From assembly GCA_041576165.1 (NCBI GenBank), contig JBFGLM010000092.1, positions 1 to 11,429 on the forward strand: a stretch of DNA of 11,429 nucleotides. The letters run 5' to 3'. Shown here piece after piece: positions 4,410 through 11,429 of the stretch; the first letter of the stretch is position 1; every line of letters starts with the position of its first letter. The notes beneath the pieces were generated by a model that was given only the letters and a program-made list of their open reading frames with translations, had not been told where the DNA came from and ran no database searches. The DNA is from Acidimicrobiia bacterium (lineage in GTDB: Bacteria > Actinomycetota > Acidimicrobiia > Spongiisociales > Spongiisociaceae). The position numbers and the translations under genes are program-made.

Positions 4410-5876
4410 TCAGAGGGGATGGTCGCTCGGAGCGACCGGCCGTGGCAACGTGTCTTCCCCGGTCAGGTTGGCATGGACGGCGGCCGCGCACGCCCGCCCA
4501 TCGGCGATCGCCCAGACCACCAGGCTGGCCCCGCGGGTGGCGTCGCCGCAGGCATATACACCAGGCGCAGTGGTTTGCCAGTCGTCATCGATCGCAATGG
4601 TGCCATGACCGGTCAGGTCGATCTCCAGGTCGCGCACGAGACGCCCGGCCTCGACCCCGTCGAACCCCATCGCCAGCAGGACGAGGTCGGCCCGCACCTG
4701 GAACGCCGAGCCGCCGATCGATTCGAAGCGGCGATGGTGCTGCTCCCATACGGCGTCAACCCGATCGCCACAGATCCCGTGGACTCGTCCGGTTTGGTCG
4801 GGTACCAGCTGACGCACCTCGGTCCTCCACTCCTCCCGCACCCCTTCCTCCTGCGCGAAGCCGTGCTTGTGGACTCGTGGCCACTGAGGCCACGGGTTGG
4901 TGCTGAAGTCGCGCTCAGACGGCGGGCACGGGTTGTGGTCGAACATCCGGACAGACGCGGCGCCTTGGCGATTGGCGGTGCCAAGGCAATCCAGACCGGT
5001 GTCCCCACCGCCGATGATGGCCACATGCCGCCCGGCCGCATCGATGCTGGTGTGGTTCTGGTCGCCCGCTTGAACGCGATTGGCCTCCTCTAGATAGGTC
5101 ATACCTTGATGTACGCCGACCAGATTGGCGCCGGGCACGTCCAGCTGGCGGGCGAAGCTGGATCCGCAGGCCACGATCGCCGCATCGAAAGAATCGACCA
5201 GCTCGTCGGCCGTGAGGTCCCCACCGACATCCACTTGGGTGTGGAACTGTGTCCCCTCCGCCGAGAGCTGTTCGAGGCGCCGGTCAAGCAGAGCTTTGTC
5301 CATCTTGAAGTCAGGAATCCCGTAGCGCAGCAGACCTCCTACGCGGTCGGCCCGCTCGAACACGGCAACCTCGTGGCCGGCGCGGGTGAGCTGTTGAGCA
5401 GCGGCCAGCCCGGCTGGACCCGAACCCACCACTGCCACCGAGAAGCCTGTCGCATGATCGGGCGGATGTGGCACCACCCACCCTTCTGCGAACGCTCGAT
5501 CGATGATGGCGAGTTCGATCTGACGGATCGCCACCGCGTCGTCATTGATCGCCAGAACGCAACTCGCCTCACACGGAGCTGGGCACAACCAGCCTGTGAA
5601 TTCTGGGAAATTGTTCGTGGCGTGAAGCTGTTCGATCGCGTATTGCCACCGACCGGATGCCACCGAGTCATTCCAGTAGGCAATCTCGTTGCCCAGGGGG
5701 CACCCGAGCTCGCAAAACGCCACCCCGCAGTCCATGCACCGGGTGGCATTGCGCTCGATGACCCGGCCGGCAGGGGCCTCGATGACGACGCGCCAATCCC
5801 GGATACGCTCGCCCACTGGCCTGACGAGGGCATCTTCCCGGCGGTATGTCAGAAAACCCCAGGGATCGACGGCCAC
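4410..5876 (-). CDS. gltD: Glutamate synthase small (beta) subunit (488 aa)
   Basis: N-terminal DPWGFL; Fe-S motifs CMDCGVAFCELGCP and CPAPCEASC; FAD motif VAVVGSGPAGLAAAQQL; GGLLRYGIPDFK; pyridine-nucleotide motif IIGGGDTG; NPWPQWP; C-terminal GDATRGASLVVWAI. GTG start at 5876 with GGAGGT 6 nt upstream. Confidence 0.93.
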   Translation of the reverse strand: MAVDPWGFLTYRREDALVRPVGERIRDWRVVIEAPAGRVIERNATRCMDCGVAFCELGCPLGNEIAYWNDSVASGRWQYAIEQLHATNNFPEFTGWLCPAPCEASCVLAINDDAVAIRQIELAIIDRAFAEGWVVPHPPDHATGFSVAVVGSGPAGLAAAQQLTRAGHEVAVFERADRVGGLLRYGIPDFKMDKALLDRRLEQLSAEGTQFHTQVDVGGDLTADELVDSFDAAIVACGSSFARQLDVPGANLVGVHQGMTYLEEANRVQAGDQNHTSIDAAGRHVAIIGGGDTGLDCLGTANRQGAASVRMFDHNPCPPSERDFSTNPWPQWPRVHKHGFAQEEGVREEWRTEVRQLVPDQTGRVHGICGDRVDAVWEQHHRRFESIGGSAFQVRADLVLLAMGFDGVEAGRLVRDLEIDLTGHGTIAIDDDWQTTAPGVYACGDATRGASLVVWAIADGRACAAAVHANLTGEDTLPRPVAPSDHPL

Positions 5877-6056
5877 GGTGGCACCTCCGGACAACCTGGC
5901 CGGCCGCCGTACTAGCCAACGGCCCGCTCATCGCGATTCGCTCGATTGTCCTGGCGGACTCATGCTCTCATGCCGAGTTGTGATCTGACAAGGGCAGGGC
6001 ACCGGATTCTTGTAGCCCCGTGACTGTTGCCCGGCTTGGCCGTACCTGGGTGGGGC

Positions 6057-6608
6057 TCACCTGCCGGGTGTCCAACCGCCCGCCGTCGGTTTGATGGCTT
6101 GAGTGCGCTCGAGCCAGTTTGTGAGCGGCGCCGGAAGCTCGGCCGGTCGATCACCCCAGTCGTAGACGACGGCGGCGCCGGCGATGACATCGTGCAATGC
6201 CCGCCGCTCCCTCCCGAACAGAACACCCAGGAACCCAAGACCCAGGATGGCAAAACTCAGCGGAAGCGCGAGCACGCGCACGGCCGCTCGCGCCGGGGTC
6301 AACGGCGTTCCATCCCTGCAGACCACTCTGAGCCCAACCACGGCCTTGCCCGGGGTGCGCCCGCTCACGATGAGGCCCACCACCAGATAGATGAAGGCCC
6401 ATCCAGCCATCCCGAGAATCCAGTACAGCGAGTGGTCGCTGTCGGCGACGCCGATGTCCCATGCGAAGAGCGCGGACAGTAGGAACGACGCACCCCCAAG
6501 CAACAGGCTGTAACTCACAGCGATCACGAGCCAGTCGATCACAAACGCCGCCAGCCTCGTGAACACCCCGGCGTAATTGCCCGTGACGACTCCTGCCATA
6601 CGCTTCAT
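6057..6608 (-). CDS. RDD family membrane protein (183 aa)
   Basis: YAGVFTRLAAFVIDW, GRTPGKAVVGLRVV and ERRALHDVIAG are the RDD signature motifs. The start overlaps the upstream stop (ATGA). Confidence 0.92.
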   Translation of the reverse strand: MKRMAGVVTGNYAGVFTRLAAFVIDWLVIAVSYSLLLGGASFLLSALFAWDIGVADSDHSLYWILGMAGWAFIYLVVGLIVSGRTPGKAVVGLRVVCRDGTPLTPARAAVRVLALPLSFAILGLGFLGVLFGRERRALHDVIAGAAVVYDWGDRPAELPAPLTNWLERTQAIKPTAGGWTPGR

Positions 6609-7450
6609 GATGGAGGCTCCGACTGCGCCTCGGTCAGTGCTCGGGGACCGGGCGGCATCGCGTTCGAGTCCCTTCCCAGGATCCGATTCACTGTCCGGGC
6701 CAACAGGACGTCGAGACCGACGCCCTGGCGCCGAGCGAGATCTATTGCCGACTCGGCAATTTGTTCGGTGCCCTCAACGACCCTGTCGCCCACCCGCACG
6801 CGGCGCACGATGGCCTCCACATCCACCCGATCGAGGAGCGCATCGAGATCAACTTCGGCCAGCAGGTCGTTGAGATCGATGCGTTCCATCATCGACCCAA
6901 TATCGACCCTAGACATGAGCTGAGCGATGTCTAGGTCACCGAGAAGCCGGTTCATATCGACGTGTGACAGCAGGGCGTTCACGTCCACTTCATCCAGCAT
7001 CGCTTCGAGGTCGAGCCGCTTGATGAGGTCGCCCTGGTCAACTGACTGGACCACGACCGGCAACACCACCGCGACGACTCTTGCCAGGCGTTGTTCCGCC
7101 AGTCGAGTGGCTTGACTCCAATCAACTCCGAACTCTTCCCGGGCAACGGCGAGCGTGTCCAAAGTCACCTGACTGACCACCCTGACGGGACTGGTCTGTG
7201 CCAAACGGCGGGCAACCGCACCCAGCGCCGCCCCCGTGATTCTTGCGGCTGTCAAACCCACATAGCCACCCAGCTCAATCAGCGAGCGCGTCAAGGTCTC
7301 CTCGGGAGTCGGGTTGGTGGCAGCACCGTTCCCACCAGCATCGAGCTGGATCTGTTGCCGCTCATTGCCCATGACCGTCATATTGCTCTGCTGTTCGCGA
7401 ACGTCACGATCCGGTGAGTGATCGAAATGGAGCCCGACCATTTCCTCCAT
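6605..7450 (-). CDS. Uncharacterised protein with nine tandem 9-residue hDhxxhhxx repeats
   Basis: Clear periodic repeats and an ATGA overlap with the RDD gene. The start is uncertain: ATG 7450 has GGGAGAGGG upstream; ATG 7381 and 7372 are alternatives. The 7531 start lies inside the upstream palindrome and is unlikely. Confidence 0.8.
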   Translation of the reverse strand: MEEMVGLHFDHSPDRDVREQQSNMTVMGNERQQIQLDAGGNGAATNPTPEETLTRSLIELGGYVGLTAARITGAALGAVARRLAQTSPVRVVSQVTLDTLAVAREEFGVDWSQATRLAEQRLARVVAVVLPVVVQSVDQGDLIKRLDLEAMLDEVDVNALLSHVDMNRLLGDLDIAQLMSRVDIGSMMERIDLNDLLAEVDLDALLDRVDVEAIVRRVRVGDRVVEGTEQIAESAIDLARRQGVGLDVLLARTVNRILGRDSNAMPPGPRALTEAQSEPPS

Positions 7451-7527
7451 GTGCACCCTCTCCCGCTGTATGACAATGGGCGCGCCAAAACGCGTCCCAT
7501 TGTCATGACGGCAGACCGGGCGGGTCC

Positions 7528-7544
7528 TCACCCCGTGGGGGTGA
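7528..7544. promoter_or_regulatory. Palindromic box 1, TCACCC-CGTGG-GGGTGA (candidate activator site for the repeat-protein/RDD operon)
   Basis: Perfect 6-5-6 palindrome in an intergenic gap; GACAAT (- strand, 7499-7504) lies 23 nt downstream. Confidence 0.7.
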
Positions 7545-7552
7545 GCCCAGGC

Positions 7553-8383
7553 TCATTGCCTGCGGCGATCGGCGACCTTCAACAGCTCGGCTGCGGCCAC
7601 GATGACCTGCGCCTCGAAGTAGAGCCAGACCAGCACCACCAAGACGGCTCCCGCGGCACCGGTGAGAGACACTGACGTCAACTGCGAGTAGATCGTAAAC
7701 ACGCCCGTACTGGCAACGAGGCACACCGCTGTGAGGCCCGACACCCAGATGACACTCAACAGGCGAACAGGGACAGGTACCAGCATGCGAAATAGCACCA
7801 CGAGCACCCCGATGCCGAGACCCCACGTGGCAGCCGTCACGGCGAGATTGTCGATCGCCGCCAGCCAAGCTGGTTGGCCGGGCAGAATGCCCACGATCAG
7901 ATTGGCGACCGTTTGGACCAGCAAGCTCGCGACGAGCAGGGCACTCGCCAGCAGGACCACTGCAACAGCGAGCAGGCGACGCCGCATCGTGTACGTCAAG
8001 CCATCGCCGACAGGGCGATGCCAGATGACATTGAACGTGTCTTGCAACGCAACGAACACCACCGACGCGGCGAACGCCCACGATGTGATGCCGACCACTC
8101 CCAACCCTGCGGTGGTGCCCGGCGACTCGATGTCGGCGGCGAGCTCCGTGGCGACCTCGCCGGCCGCGTCTTGCAGCACGGGACTGAGCTGGCTAGCGAC
8201 GTAGGCGGCGATCTCCTCTTGCGTGAACAGCAGACTCGCTACGAATATCGCGATGGAAACAAGCGGGATGATCGCGAACAATCCGTAGTACGCGAGACCG
8301 GCGCCCAACCGCATGGCTCTGTCGCGCCGCCACTCTGCGTAGGCCGTGGCCAAAAGCGCGTAGGCAGCCGAGATCCACCTCAC
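7553..8383 (-). CDS. YihY/virulence factor BrkB family membrane protein (276 aa)
   Basis: W..DRAMRLGAGLAYYGLFAIIPL, ASVVFVALQDTFNVIW and GAAGAVLVVLVWLYFEAQVIVAAAE are typical YihY motifs; about 6 TM. No in-frame upstream start before a TAA. Confidence 0.92.
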   Translation of the reverse strand: MRWISAAYALLATAYAEWRRDRAMRLGAGLAYYGLFAIIPLVSIAIFVASLLFTQEEIAAYVASQLSPVLQDAAGEVATELAADIESPGTTAGLGVVGITSWAFAASVVFVALQDTFNVIWHRPVGDGLTYTMRRRLLAVAVVLLASALLVASLLVQTVANLIVGILPGQPAWLAAIDNLAVTAATWGLGIGVLVVLFRMLVPVPVRLLSVIWVSGLTAVCLVASTGVFTIYSQLTSVSLTGAAGAVLVVLVWLYFEAQVIVAAAELLKVADRRRQ

Positions 8384-8540
8384 GACGCCACCGCCGGGGC
8401 GAGACGGTGGTCCCGGATTGGCACGAATCCACCCCCACGGCCGTCTGAGCCACCGGCGCCCGGAGATCTCGTGCGCCGGGCCAGGATCCGAACTTGTCCC
8501 GTGTGGCGGACAACCGCTGCCTGATTACGGCGATCGGGGT

Positions 8541-8741
8541 TCAGTAGGCGACGCGCTCGGCATAGGCACTTCCCGGCCTGGCCGGTAGAACCGCTCCGAT
8601 GAGCCACAGAATCGGGATGAAGATGCCGAATATGAACAAGGCCACGTGACCTTTGCGAAGCGTCACCAATGCGACCGTGAACCAAAGGGCGATGTAGATA
8701 GCCGCCAAGGCCGAAATCAGGATCCATTCGAGCCCGGTCAT
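8541..8741 (-). CDS. Small two-TM membrane protein (66 aa), unknown function
   Basis: Hydrophobic hairpin joined by LRKGH and followed by FIFGIFIPILWLIGAVLP; AGGTGA RBS upstream of the ATG; GC-biased codon use. Confidence 0.8.
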   Translation of the reverse strand: MTGLEWILISALAAIYIALWFTVALVTLRKGHVALFIFGIFIPILWLIGAVLPARPGSAYAERVAY

Positions 8742-8771
8742 TGTCCGTCACCTGCCTTTCCTGCGTTGCCT

Positions 8772-8816
8772 ATTGTGCTGGCGTTTGCCGAGCTGGAAAG
8801 AATCGTGCTGGAGTTT
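8772..8816. repeat. 15-bp direct repeat with 30-bp period in the promoter of the 66-aa gene
   Basis: ATTGTGCTGGCGTTT (8772-8786) versus ATCGTGCTGGAGTTT (8802-8816), 13/15 identical. Confidence 0.55.
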
Positions 8817-8829
8817 CGGTCTTCGAGCG

Positions 8830-8846
8830 TCACCCGGCCTGGGTGG
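8830..8846. promoter_or_regulatory. Palindromic box 2, TCACCC-GGCCT-GGGTGG (candidate activator site for the 66-aa/YihY unit)
   Basis: 11/12 match to the box; CACGAT (- strand, 8802-8807) lies 22 nt downstream. Confidence 0.65.
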
Positions 8847-8911
8847 TTCAAGCAGAGCCTCCAGGCGGGCCTGCGCCGCTTTCGGGCAGCGATGGATAAC
8901 GGCGGGCGCAC

Positions 8912-8928
8912 TCACCCTCCATGGGTGA
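8912..8928. promoter_or_regulatory. Palindromic box 3, TCACCC-TCCAT-GGGTGA (candidate activator site for the holin-family gene)
   Basis: Perfect 6-5-6 palindrome; TGc-CATCGT (hexamer 8951-8956) lies 22 nt downstream on the + strand, followed by RBS AGGAG at 8963-8967. Confidence 0.7.
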
Positions 8929-8973
8929 CGGCGCCATTCGCGCCAGCTGCCATCGTTATGCCAGGAGCATGAC

Positions 8974-9342
8974 TTGAAGCTACTGATCGCACTGCTCATC
9001 AATGCTGTTGCCCTGTTGATGACGGCCTATCTGTTGCCCGGGCTTGAGTTCGACGGCGGGGTGTTCGAACTGCTCGTAGTGACAGTCGTCTTCAGCCTCA
9101 TCAACACGTTCATACGACCCGTCGTGAGATTCCTCACCCTGCCGCTCACGGTCGTCACGTTTGGTTTGTTCACGTTGGTCGTCAACGGGTTGATGGTGAT
9201 CATCACAACGTGGCTCGTCGACGCGTTGTCGCTCGCAGGCGGGCTGGTGCAAAGACTCTTCACGGCCATCGTGGCTGCCCTGGTGATCAGCGTGATCAGC
9301 GTTGCGCTGAGCTGGCTGTTGTTCAGAGACAGAGATTCATAG
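8974..9342 (+). CDS. YvlD-like / phage holin family 4 (4-TM) membrane protein (122 aa)
   Basis: LLINAVAL...LLPG...LINTFIRPVVRFLTLPLTVVTFGLFTLVVNG is the family signature. TTG start 6 nt after AGGAG. Confidence 0.9.
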   Translation: MKLLIALLINAVALLMTAYLLPGLEFDGGVFELLVVTVVFSLINTFIRPVVRFLTLPLTVVTFGLFTLVVNGLMVIITTWLVDALSLAGGLVQRLFTAIVAALVISVISVALSWLLFRDRDS

Positions 9343-9361
9343 CTGTCGGGCGATGCCCGGG

Positions 9362-9407
9362 CGCTCCGTGAAAACGCCGCTCCGTGAAACGCCGCTCCGT
9401 GAAACGC
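9362..9407. repeat. Tandem repeat, 3 x CGCTCCGTGAAA(A)CGC
   Basis: Units at 9362-9377 (16 nt), 9378-9392 and 9393-9407 (15 nt each), in the gap between convergent genes. Confidence 0.9.
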
Positions 9408-9464
9408 GAGGAGCGGGCATGGGAATCGGGTCACACGTCTTAGCCCAATTGACAGGCACGCCGT

Positions 9465-11429
9465 TCAGGAATCGTCCGTGCTGCCGAGGAGGCCAAGTTG
9501 CCGAGCCTTTGCGATCGCATCGGTCTTCGACCCAACGCCCAGCTTGCGATAGACGAGGCGGAGGTGCGTTTTGACAGTGTTACGCGACAAGAACAGCCGT
9601 TGCGCTATCTGAGCGTTGGTCAGATTCTCCGGTAACAGTTCCATGACGGCCTGTTCCGCCGGCGACAAGCGGGGCGGGCCCGGCGGCGTCTCATCGAACC
9701 GCTGCGCTTGTATGCGAATCAGATCGTCGAGAGCGGTCGGGCTCGCGAACCGTCCGGCGAGCTCAGATGCTTCGGCGAGCGCTGCACCCGCGTCCCGCGT
9801 GTCTCCAGCCCTCCATGCGAGCTCAGCCCGTATCAGGGCCCTGACGCACATCAGGTCGCCTGGGAGGTTTTGCGCGGTTGGTTGCGCACAGTCGATCGCC
9901 CACGCGGGCGTTGACGTGTGCTCCGTCCACAAAGCGGCCAGGCATCCATATGCAGCTTTTCGGGCTCTCATCTTCATGGGGATGTGCTCCACAAGTGTGG
10001 CCATGCGAGCGACGTTCGACTGGGCAGTGAGTATGTCCCCGCTGACAAACGCCAACAAGGCCGCCAAACCGTGGCGCTCAGCCGTCGTGTGCAACGTGGC
10101 CTGGGGCGCGCGGATTCGAGCCAACACGACGAATGCATCCGACAAGGAGCCCGCCAGCCAGCGAACCCTGGCTGCCGAAATGGCCAGATGACCAGACGTG
10201 TCCGCCTCCCTACGCGCAGCAGCATCAGCCACCTGATGGGTGGATCGGTTCAGTTGTTCGAGCGCCTCATCGACGTTCCACCCGTAAAGCGAGAGATCAA
10301 TGCGGTTCGCCAGCCACTCGGTAGTAAACCCGACCGCATCACCGATCCCGTCTGACTCACTTTCCAGGGCGGAAAGATGCTTCGCCGCCGCGTCGAGATG
10401 CCCCGACTCCAGCGAGCTCCGGGTGGCCACGAGGCGTAAGGCAGGTCGCTTCGCGATCATTTCGACAGGCATCCGGTCGATCCAACTGAAGATCTGCGCC
10501 TCGGAACAATCCTCATACACGGCGGAGCTGTGCATGGACAGCACTGCGGCTGCGTCAGCGACGTCTTGGGGATCGCCGCGCATCATGTACTCGACCGCAT
10601 CGCACACATGCCCGTGCGTGAGACACCACTCACGGGCCCGCCGATAGGTGGCCAGCTGGTCGTCGGGGGACGGTGACGCCAGTGCCTCAAAGGCATCTCG
10701 GAGAACCGGATGATGCTCGAACCATCCCGGCGAATCGAGGACCGGCCGGAGGAAGGTCTCTCGGGTGGTCAGATCATGAAATGTCCGTGGGGCAGCGCTC
10801 CGGCTGACAACTGCGCACAGATCCGCGCAGAGGCGAATGAGCCCTACCGTCTGCAAGACAAGCTGTCTCGCCGTCGCGTCGAGCGGCCCAACTATCTCCC
10901 GCGACACGTAGTCCACTACCGAGGCGTCGGCGCCGCTGAATGTGTTGACCCACGCGTCTACATCCTCAACCTTCTGGGCTTGCCGGCCCGCCAAGAGAAT
11001 GCCGGTCACCCAGCCACCGGTACGATCGGCCAGCTGTGCGGCCGCTGCGTCCCGCACATGCAAGCCGTACAGGTCGCGCAGCAGTCGAGCAACGCCAGTA
11101 GGCCCATGGCACAGATCATCGAGACGTACCTCTGCAGCGAGCATCTGAGAGCGCCACCGCGCGATGGATAGTGGCGGCACAGTGCGCGACCCGATCCTTA
11201 AACGCCAGTTCGCTCCGGCTTCCTCCACCAGGCGAGTCACCAGGCTGTGGACACCAGGATGGCGGATCTGCTCGTAGCGGTCAAGAAAAAGGACGACCTC
11301 GCGGTCCGATCTGATCGCGTCATTGATCAGCGCCCGCACAACTTCATGCGGCTCCGCCGGTAGATCTCCGTTCCAAAGTCTCGCACGGTGGACACCGTGC
11401 ATGGACCCGACCAACGCGGCCGCAAACGC
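9465..11429 (-). CDS. MalT-like STAND ATPase / LuxR C-terminal HTH transcriptional regulator (5'-truncated by the window edge)
   Basis: The frame is open to the window edge. MalT-type motifs: VVLFLDRY (Walker B position), GSRTVPPLSIARWR, RTGGWVTGILLA, WFEHHPVL. C-terminal LSPAEQAVMELL...TNAQIAQRLFLSRNTVKTHLRLVYRKLGV is a LuxR HTH. Confidence 0.92.
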   Translation of the reverse strand, partial: AFAAALVGSMHGVHRARLWNGDLPAEPHEVVRALINDAIRSDREVVLFLDRYEQIRHPGVHSLVTRLVEEAGANWRLRIGSRTVPPLSIARWRSQMLAAEVRLDDLCHGPTGVARLLRDLYGLHVRDAAAAQLADRTGGWVTGILLAGRQAQKVEDVDAWVNTFSGADASVVDYVSREIVGPLDATARQLVLQTVGLIRLCADLCAVVSRSAAPRTFHDLTTRETFLRPVLDSPGWFEHHPVLRDAFEALASPSPDDQLATYRRAREWCLTHGHVCDAVEYMMRGDPQDVADAAAVLSMHSSAVYEDCSEAQIFSWIDRMPVEMIAKRPALRLVATRSSLESGHLDAAAKHLSALESESDGIGDAVGFTTEWLANRIDLSLYGWNVDEALEQLNRSTHQVADAAARREADTSGHLAISAARVRWLAGSLSDAFVVLARIRAPQATLHTTAERHGLAALLAFVSGDILTAQSNVARMATLVEHIPMKMRARKAAYGCLAALWTEHTSTPAWAIDCAQPTAQNLPGDLMCVRALIRAELAWRAGDTRDAGAALAEASELAGRFASPTALDDLIRIQAQRFDETPPGPPRLSPAEQAVMELLPENLTNAQIAQRLFLSRNTVKTHLRLVYRKLGVGSKTDAIAKARQLGLLGSTDDS

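Follow-up and report, generated by a model that had tools for sequence, protein, structure and literature searches.

A TCACCC-N5-GGGTGA box as a predicted operator of MalT-like regulators in an Acidimicrobiia bacterium

Results

Genes and boxes at the locus

The window, by which we mean the whole 11,429-nucleotide stretch analysed, is contig C92 of the source genome, that of an uncultured organism (5.1 Mb, 161 contigs). Its minus strand carries the genes for an RDD-family membrane protein (6057..6608), a 281-residue protein with short internal repeats and no Pfam family (6605..7450), a BrkB/YihY-family membrane protein (7553..8383) and a 66-residue membrane protein with no Pfam family (8541..8741). 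On the plus strand, 8974..9342 encodes a four-transmembrane protein matching the Phage_holin_4_2 family, and convergent with it is the gene for a MalT-like STAND/LuxR regulator (9465..11429, minus strand), whose 5' end, including the Walker A region and the promoter, lies beyond the contig end. Between these two genes, at 9362-9420, a 15-16 nt unit occurs three times in tandem inside a longer inverted repeat, possibly a terminator region. The tetranucleotide composition of 7400-11400 is among the top 1% of distances from the genome average and the GC3 of the regulator is low (0.72 against a median of 0.80), both in line with acquired DNA.

Three boxes lie between these genes. Box 1 (7528..7544; TCACCC CGTGG GGGTGA) and box 3 (8912..8928; TCACCC TCCAT GGGTGA) are exact, while box 2 (8830..8846), which stands back to back with box 3, reads CCACCC-N5-GGGTGA on the minus strand. 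The preliminary description had counted three copies of the palindrome; its coordinates are correct and all three boxes are intergenic, but only those at 7528 and 8912 are exact, since 8830-8846 ends in GGGTGG, a single mismatch that falls in the promoter-distal half. In contigs of two further DNA runs, both from one study that may be the source, all three boxes are covered with zero differences inside them; the mismatch at 8846 therefore does not look like an assembly error. The window holds no further copy, even with two mismatches allowed, and its box count exceeds chance: three matches at no more than one mismatch compare with a shuffle mean of 0.05 (0 of 200 shuffles reach three), and the two exact boxes are likewise matched by none of 200 shuffles, the test being weak at two mismatches (10 of 200). 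The longest ORF reading downstream of box 1 (GTG at 7531) would overlap the box; we place the start of this gene at 7450, and box 1 between genes, because the public gene call gives 281 residues and a 60% identical homologue has 280.

Each box is followed by a -10-like nAnnnT hexamer at the distance first reported: GACAAT (7504-7499, minus strand) 23 nt past box 1, CACGAT (8807-8802, minus strand) 22 nt past box 2 and CATCGT (8951-8956, plus strand) 22 nt past box 3. Transcription would start near 7492 after box 1, near 8795 after box 2 and near 8963 after box 3. No sigma-70 consensus promoter was found in window 5800-9600. The preliminary description likened this placement to that of the lux box, centred at about -42.5, a figure that our literature search did not confirm. 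Boxes 2 and 3 would serve two divergent promoters, the minus-strand one for the 66-residue membrane protein, possibly co-transcribed with brkB, and the plus-strand one for the holin-family gene. The third promoter, on the minus strand after box 1, would serve the repeat-protein gene with the RDD gene, whose start overlaps its stop, as probable second gene of the operon. In the window these two are separate overlapping ORFs (6057-7450), and many of 48 homologues carry the RDD domain in the same chain; the repeat protein gave no alignment with the N-terminal part of a box-preceded RDD gene in locus L007. Downstream of the RDD gene, a glutamate-synthase small-subunit-like oxidoreductase (4410-5876) has neither an adjoining large-subunit gene nor a box of its own.

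The box set in the source genome

Exact boxes occur 11 times in the genome at spacer 5, against 0-3 at 12 other spacers and about 1.0 expected. All 11 are intergenic, although intergenic DNA makes up only about 12% of the genome as estimated with a rough gene caller made for the analysis; the intergenic enrichment proposed as a check is therefore found. Once a mismatch is tolerated, spacer 5 no longer stands out in the genome as a whole (30 matches versus 13-44 at others), and only the intergenic share is raised (16 versus 1-4). The reversed-pattern control of the genome searches says little about a motif with a stop codon in it, and we therefore used spacer and family controls instead. The promoters had been put at three, which is too few: at least 14 sites belong to the regulon, spread over five contigs (C17, C60, C92, C109 and C153), namely the 11 exact boxes and three intergenic one-mismatch copies picked by their place among exact boxes, with the remaining one-mismatch matches left out.

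The spacing to the -10 element is as fixed as had been predicted. Of the 14 sites, 12 have an nAnnnT hexamer 22 or 23 nt away in the direction of the gene (C17:8122 and C17:11606 lack it) and none has one on the other side, the background being 0.06. Chance matches in GC-rich DNA, of which about one exact copy per 5 Mb is expected, are refuted by the spacer, intergenic and -10 controls together, and we regard the probability of this explanation as negligible. All three imperfect sites deviate in the distal half, which fits a proximal half at the edge of the -35 region.

The genes that follow the boxes recur as a recognisable set: DUF6325 with SHOCT, sulfatase with FGE, glutamate decarboxylase, DUF1269, DUF7144 and TrkA-C genes, besides the holin-family, small membrane, BrkB/YihY and RDD-linked genes of the window. 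There were no mal genes among those scanned after the 14 sites. Positions 1-141 of the window and of contig C60 are identical over all 141 bases; this overlap with the left end of the window places the exact C60 box, which precedes a DUF7144 gene, about 750 nt beyond it. Two of the sites are not independent because C109:1-6010 is a 77% copy of C17:771-6709, so that the sulfatase-FGE-methyltransferase-DUF6325-SHOCT cluster is present twice. A DUF6325 protein of genome G294 (L147:7890-8483) is 91-94% identical to both the C17 and the C109 copies. The duplication and this identity suggest recent transfer or mixed binning (contamination of the source assembly is 7.5%).

Range and degeneracy of the box

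The box had been taken for an undescribed motif. It is in fact the C-rich form of a published one: in Actinoplanes sp. SE50/110, TCATCC-5 nt-GGATGA precedes 17 of 23 mapped transcription starts, 34.4 +/- 1.0 nt from the box end (PMC7567727). The range given in the text of that paper is five Micromonosporaceae genomes. Our literature search, which took in neither regulon databases nor most subscription papers, returned no other description of the C form or of a wider range.

We fetched 79 named loci around MalT-like genes, 42 titled Actinomycetota and 37 other. The combined pattern TCAYCC-N5-GGRTGA has 31 copies in 17 of the 42 Actinomycetota loci (0-2 at spacers 1-12), the other 25 having no exact box within the fetched DNA; elsewhere there are three copies in one locus of 37, a Chloroflexia contig. 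The hexamer stands at 22-23 nt in 39 of 49 sites outside the source genome, compared with a mean of 2.9 and a maximum of 6 at control offsets; across the 98 flanks of these sites, the offset is 22 in 31, 23 in 15 and each other value in 0-4.

Whole-genome box counts range from 0 to 35 in 44 genomes. In the 27 genomes with at least five boxes each (two Chloroflexia left out, chance matches included), the 368 boxes comprise 176 C/C, 149 mixed and 43 T/T. Because 149 of 368 boxes are mixed, we treat the C and T forms as one degenerate motif. C is the commoner base in the half-sites of these genomes (share 0.68), varying from 0.25 to 1.0 by genome (heterogeneity p 3e-7). The source genome, where every one of the 22 half-sites in the 11 exact boxes has C and no T-containing box occurs, stands at an extreme that it shares with G177 and that G167 comes close to. 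We rejected the idea that the helix-turn-helix specifies C or T: identical recognition helices adjoin C/C and T/T boxes.

These counts bear on the reading of the palindrome as an RNA hairpin or a small dispersed REP-like repeat. Each of the 14 sites of the source genome can pair into a stem of 5-8 bp (with flanks, -8 to -17 kcal/mol), and box 1 lies 9 nt past the brkB stop. Against this, the spacers differ in sequence in 14 of 14 sites while the loop is fixed at five, a T-rich run follows only one of 14, the pairing of a C half with a T half in the mixed boxes is not favoured by a stem, and the one-sided -10 spacing is left unexplained. We consider a hairpin or repeat highly improbable.

The proposed co-occurrence with MalT-like genes is borne out in a sample of the class: an exact C/C box is present in 17 of 23 genomes with such a gene and in 18 of 127 without one (18 of 92 when one small-genome family is omitted), with the proviso that kin among these genomes are not independent. 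The association thus has exceptions on both sides, six regulator-bearing genomes having no exact C-form box and 18 regulator-less ones having it. In 24 genomes of the same family as the source, no MalT-like regulator was detected and there are 0-2 boxes each, which suggests that the regulon was acquired.

Target families recur as well. We picked 70 first ORFs after oriented boxes elsewhere, 51 of them with a Pfam family: DUF6325, DUF7144 and SHOCT account for five each, DUF1269 for four, the regulators themselves for five (four genes), sulfate permease for three, and sulfatase, DUF2252 and ion channel for two each, with holin-family, RDD, GH15, MIP and decarboxylase genes occurring singly. DAGK and DUF308 genes are also found under boxes in other genomes, as are GH15 and DUF2252. 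Statistics of sequence show the box to be intergenic, to face a gene with an nAnnnT hexamer 22-23 nt further on, and to go together with MalT-like regulators and with small membrane proteins and enzymes that recur as a set.

The MalT-like regulators

The source genome has three MalT-like genes, on C17 (697 bits), on C77 (660 bits) and in the window (611 bits, cut at the contig end). The window regulator is STAND-type by its homologues and its fold: the model has a pLDDT of 90, and its best fold match is MalT (8BOB, E 4e-8), with 1HZ4 at rank 10. Walker A is visible only in the orthologue P0001, the window copy being cut. The missing 5' part was not found elsewhere in the assembly, and no close relative was confirmed in metagenome contigs.

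An orthologue of the window regulator, 61% identical, was found in G359 in a search of 400 genomes of the order. It immediately precedes a box that shares the CCACCC deviation and the spacing of box 2, and a 79% identical orthologue of the 66-residue gene follows; retention of this deviation before an orthologous gene is a good indication of selection on the imperfect box 2. In G359 (L143:7113-12313) an 864-residue MalT-like gene lies head to head with the orthologue. A zero-spacer TCACCCGGGTGA is found between the two, at L143:9816. Long MalT-like genes of 864-885 residues occupy the same cluster in both G359 and G293, at the position where C92 ends.

The preliminary description assigned the box to the adjacent regulator gene. 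As the sole activator, a special case of the explanation that we prefer, this gene has several points in its favour: it is about 540 nt from box 3, its G359 orthologue has the placement just described and no C17-type gene turned up in G359, and its recognition helix, SRNTVKTH, matches those of box-adjacent regulators. The C17 paralogue, however, has five boxes within about 7 kb; G294, whose sole detected MalT-like gene is 66% identical to that of C17, has four exact C/C boxes beside it; and the long genes of G359 and G293 belong to the same cluster. We therefore regard sole action of the window gene as unlikely. Sequence cannot single out the neighbour. The candidates are the window gene, the C17 paralogue and an unassembled partner. 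We judge on balance that the window gene is among the binders, and the simplest interpretation is that several paralogues share the box.

The window-type and the C17-type genes form two sister clades (support 0.98), and the long clade stands apart from both. A place for the Actinoplanes activator, ACSP50_3915, is suggested by peptides that two published primers encode: they fit only the clade of about 880-900 residues (1 of 62 tree rows), with the window gene outside it, and match 15 of 120 sequences in one homologue list and 0 of 120 in another. A search by name in a list of 120 homologues did not turn up ACSP50_3915. By this indirect route, the long clade probably holds the Actinoplanes activator. 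The C77 paralogue is an unlikely binder, as its contig has no N5 box and G496, which carries a C77-like gene, has none either (G496 is 82% complete).

Another kind of factor might instead read the box, for example an alternative sigma factor, a response regulator of the NarL type or the product of the small LuxR gene that lies near the C60 box, with the MalT-like genes as neighbours only. LuxR-type helix-turn-helix matches number 31 in the source genome, and one of these is some 650 nt away from the C60 box; the text of PMC7567727 reports no direct binding assay for the Actinoplanes regulator. That paper does find that deletion of the MalT-like ACSP50_3915 lowers 42 of 51 genes and that its overexpression raises 39 (Droste et al. 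2020, PMC7567727). Boxes moreover track MalT-like genes across genomes, and the operator layout follows the clade of the adjacent MalT-like gene, as set out below. Another factor as the reader is, to our mind, very unlikely.

A second predicted operator layout

A zero-spacer peak in a de novo scan led to a second arrangement of the half-sites, TCACCC-GGGTGA-N11-GGRTGA-N7-TCAYCC, which we call layout B, the N5 palindrome being layout A. The same scan returned a GTGGTA-N4-TACCAC palindrome, which we rejected: it is the coding sequence of a conserved WYRYH motif and an artefact of how the loci were picked. With up to two mismatches, layout B has 23 copies in the fetched loci (L027, L032, L037, L056, L029, L083, L094, L110, L126 and L131; for example L037:14147 and L027:17220), and nAnnnT stands 22-23 nt past the third half-site in 23 of 23.

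Layout B adjoins a separate MalT-like clade, mostly of Mycobacteriaceae. On a tree of 141 regulators, scored within 5 kb, 41 have layout A only, 10 layout B only, none both and 90 neither; among the 51 with a layout the label changes twice, compared with a shuffled mean of 9.4. Because kin share labels, this shows clade restriction and not co-evolution. Four Mycobacteriaceae genomes have 5-12 layout-B copies each and 0-2 N5 boxes, a fifth genome tested having none. The layout is present in 5 of 401 genomes in a sample of the phylum and has no copy in the source genome. Its targets differ from those of the N5 regulon (DUF417, SDR, DUF4440, pyridine-nucleotide oxidoreductases and thiolase). A half-site at +7 is also seen in 9 of 84 layout-A promoters. 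Hybrid sites, in which an N5 box is followed by 7 nt and then TCACCC at the spacing seen in layout B, occur at C17:10670 (L001:10670-10700), L147:5177-5206 and L147:6014-6043. A literature search for the exact layout-B string found no relevant paper.

Discussion

We conclude that each window box very probably belongs to the Actinoplanes MRLGR type of activator site (TCAYCC-N5-GGRTGA), read by a MalT-like regulator. The placing of such a site at the -35 edge, as the preliminary description had it, is supported by the Actinoplanes geometry and by the co-occurrence of box and regulator. E. coli MalT is a monomer while ADP is bound; when it binds its ligand it becomes an ATP-bound oligomer, which then recruits polymerase (PMC10427625). 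By analogy, the regulator reading the window boxes would be switched on by ligand and ATP, would oligomerise as MalT does and would so seat one LuxR-type helix-turn-helix domain on each half-site. The half-site nearer the promoter, GGGTGA, adjoins the -35 position, and the bound protein could thus recruit RNA polymerase to promoters that have no good -35 element. As to the inducer, nothing in the present data points to maltose; the Actinoplanes regulon is induced on maltose (PMC7567727). The decarboxylase, channel and permease targets found here, and the arginine deiminase operon of Actinoplanes, hint at a role in stress, which is a guess.

The two layouts suggest a grammar shared by actinobacterial MalT-like STAND activators. 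A GGRTGA half-site would always stand 22-23 nt before the -10 element, and clade specificity would reside in the layout of the extra half-site copies and not in the half-site sequence, so that oligomer geometry, not the recognition helix, would insulate paralogues from one another. Layout A, as in the window and in Actinoplanes, would mark a regulon that is mobile and spread through the phylum, comprises small membrane proteins, channels, sulfatases and glutamate decarboxylase, may serve a stress response and answers to several paralogous sensors. Taken jointly, the fixed half-site, the layout-set specificity, the mobile regulon and the insulation by geometry form a proposal that we hold to be evenly poised between right and wrong. 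If layout B is confirmed, two natural layouts offer a direct test of how STAND oligomers read spaced half-sites. The box is also a handle that ties DUF1269, DUF6325, DUF7144, SHOCT, the four-transmembrane holin family, RDD and BrkB/YihY into one predicted regulon, spanning Actinomycetota and reaching past the five genomes of the 2020 paper (PMC7567727).

Comparison with known systems

The closest known system is that of Actinoplanes, with which the window box has in common the 6-5-6 palindrome and 10 of 12 bases. The 3' end of the box is about 34-36 nt from the mapped start in Actinoplanes and from the predicted start in the source genome, where the distance would be 35-36 nt if the start is 7 nt past the hexamer. 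Both have more than one MalT-like gene among the box targets, the C92 and C17 regulators both sitting among boxes. In Actinoplanes a second MalT-like gene has slight effects (PMC7567727). The Actinoplanes regulon includes SHOCT, three DUF1269 and two BrkB/YihY-type genes besides the arginine deiminase operon (PMC7567727), the first three kinds being targets here too, and neither set has maltose-metabolism genes, as far as the text of that paper describes its targets. The differences are that the exact boxes here have C where the published consensus has T, that the host belongs to a distant class, that its regulators (about 730-750 residues) fall in another clade than the probable ACSP50_3915 clade as placed by primer peptides, and that the targets add sulfatase with FGE, glutamate decarboxylase, DUF6325, DUF7144, holin-family and RDD genes.

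Like E. coli MalT, the regulators of the source genome combine a STAND NOD, a helical sensor and a LuxR helix-turn-helix, and, like the MalT box (as cited in PMC7567727), the proximal half-site lies at the -35 edge. Unlike MalT, they score 134, 286 and 329 bits on the PRK04841 equivalog, the first protein being truncated, against a cut-off of 537 bits; the half-site is GGGTGA and not GGA(T/G)GA; and a single palindrome replaces the repeated boxes, with no mal genes under it. A likeness to the CsgD site was not confirmed, as the letters occur only in a primer of the one paper checked, and it is not used here. Quorum-sensing LuxR proteins have the same type of DNA-binding domain and a site that overlaps the -35 region (PMC10491235), but no autoinducer-binding domain was found in the window regulator, only a GerE-type domain being matched, and the box differs from the lux box in sequence and length. 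The kind of box is thus already known, while its phylum-wide range and the second layout are new; the window box is very probably an operator of a described kind in a new lineage.
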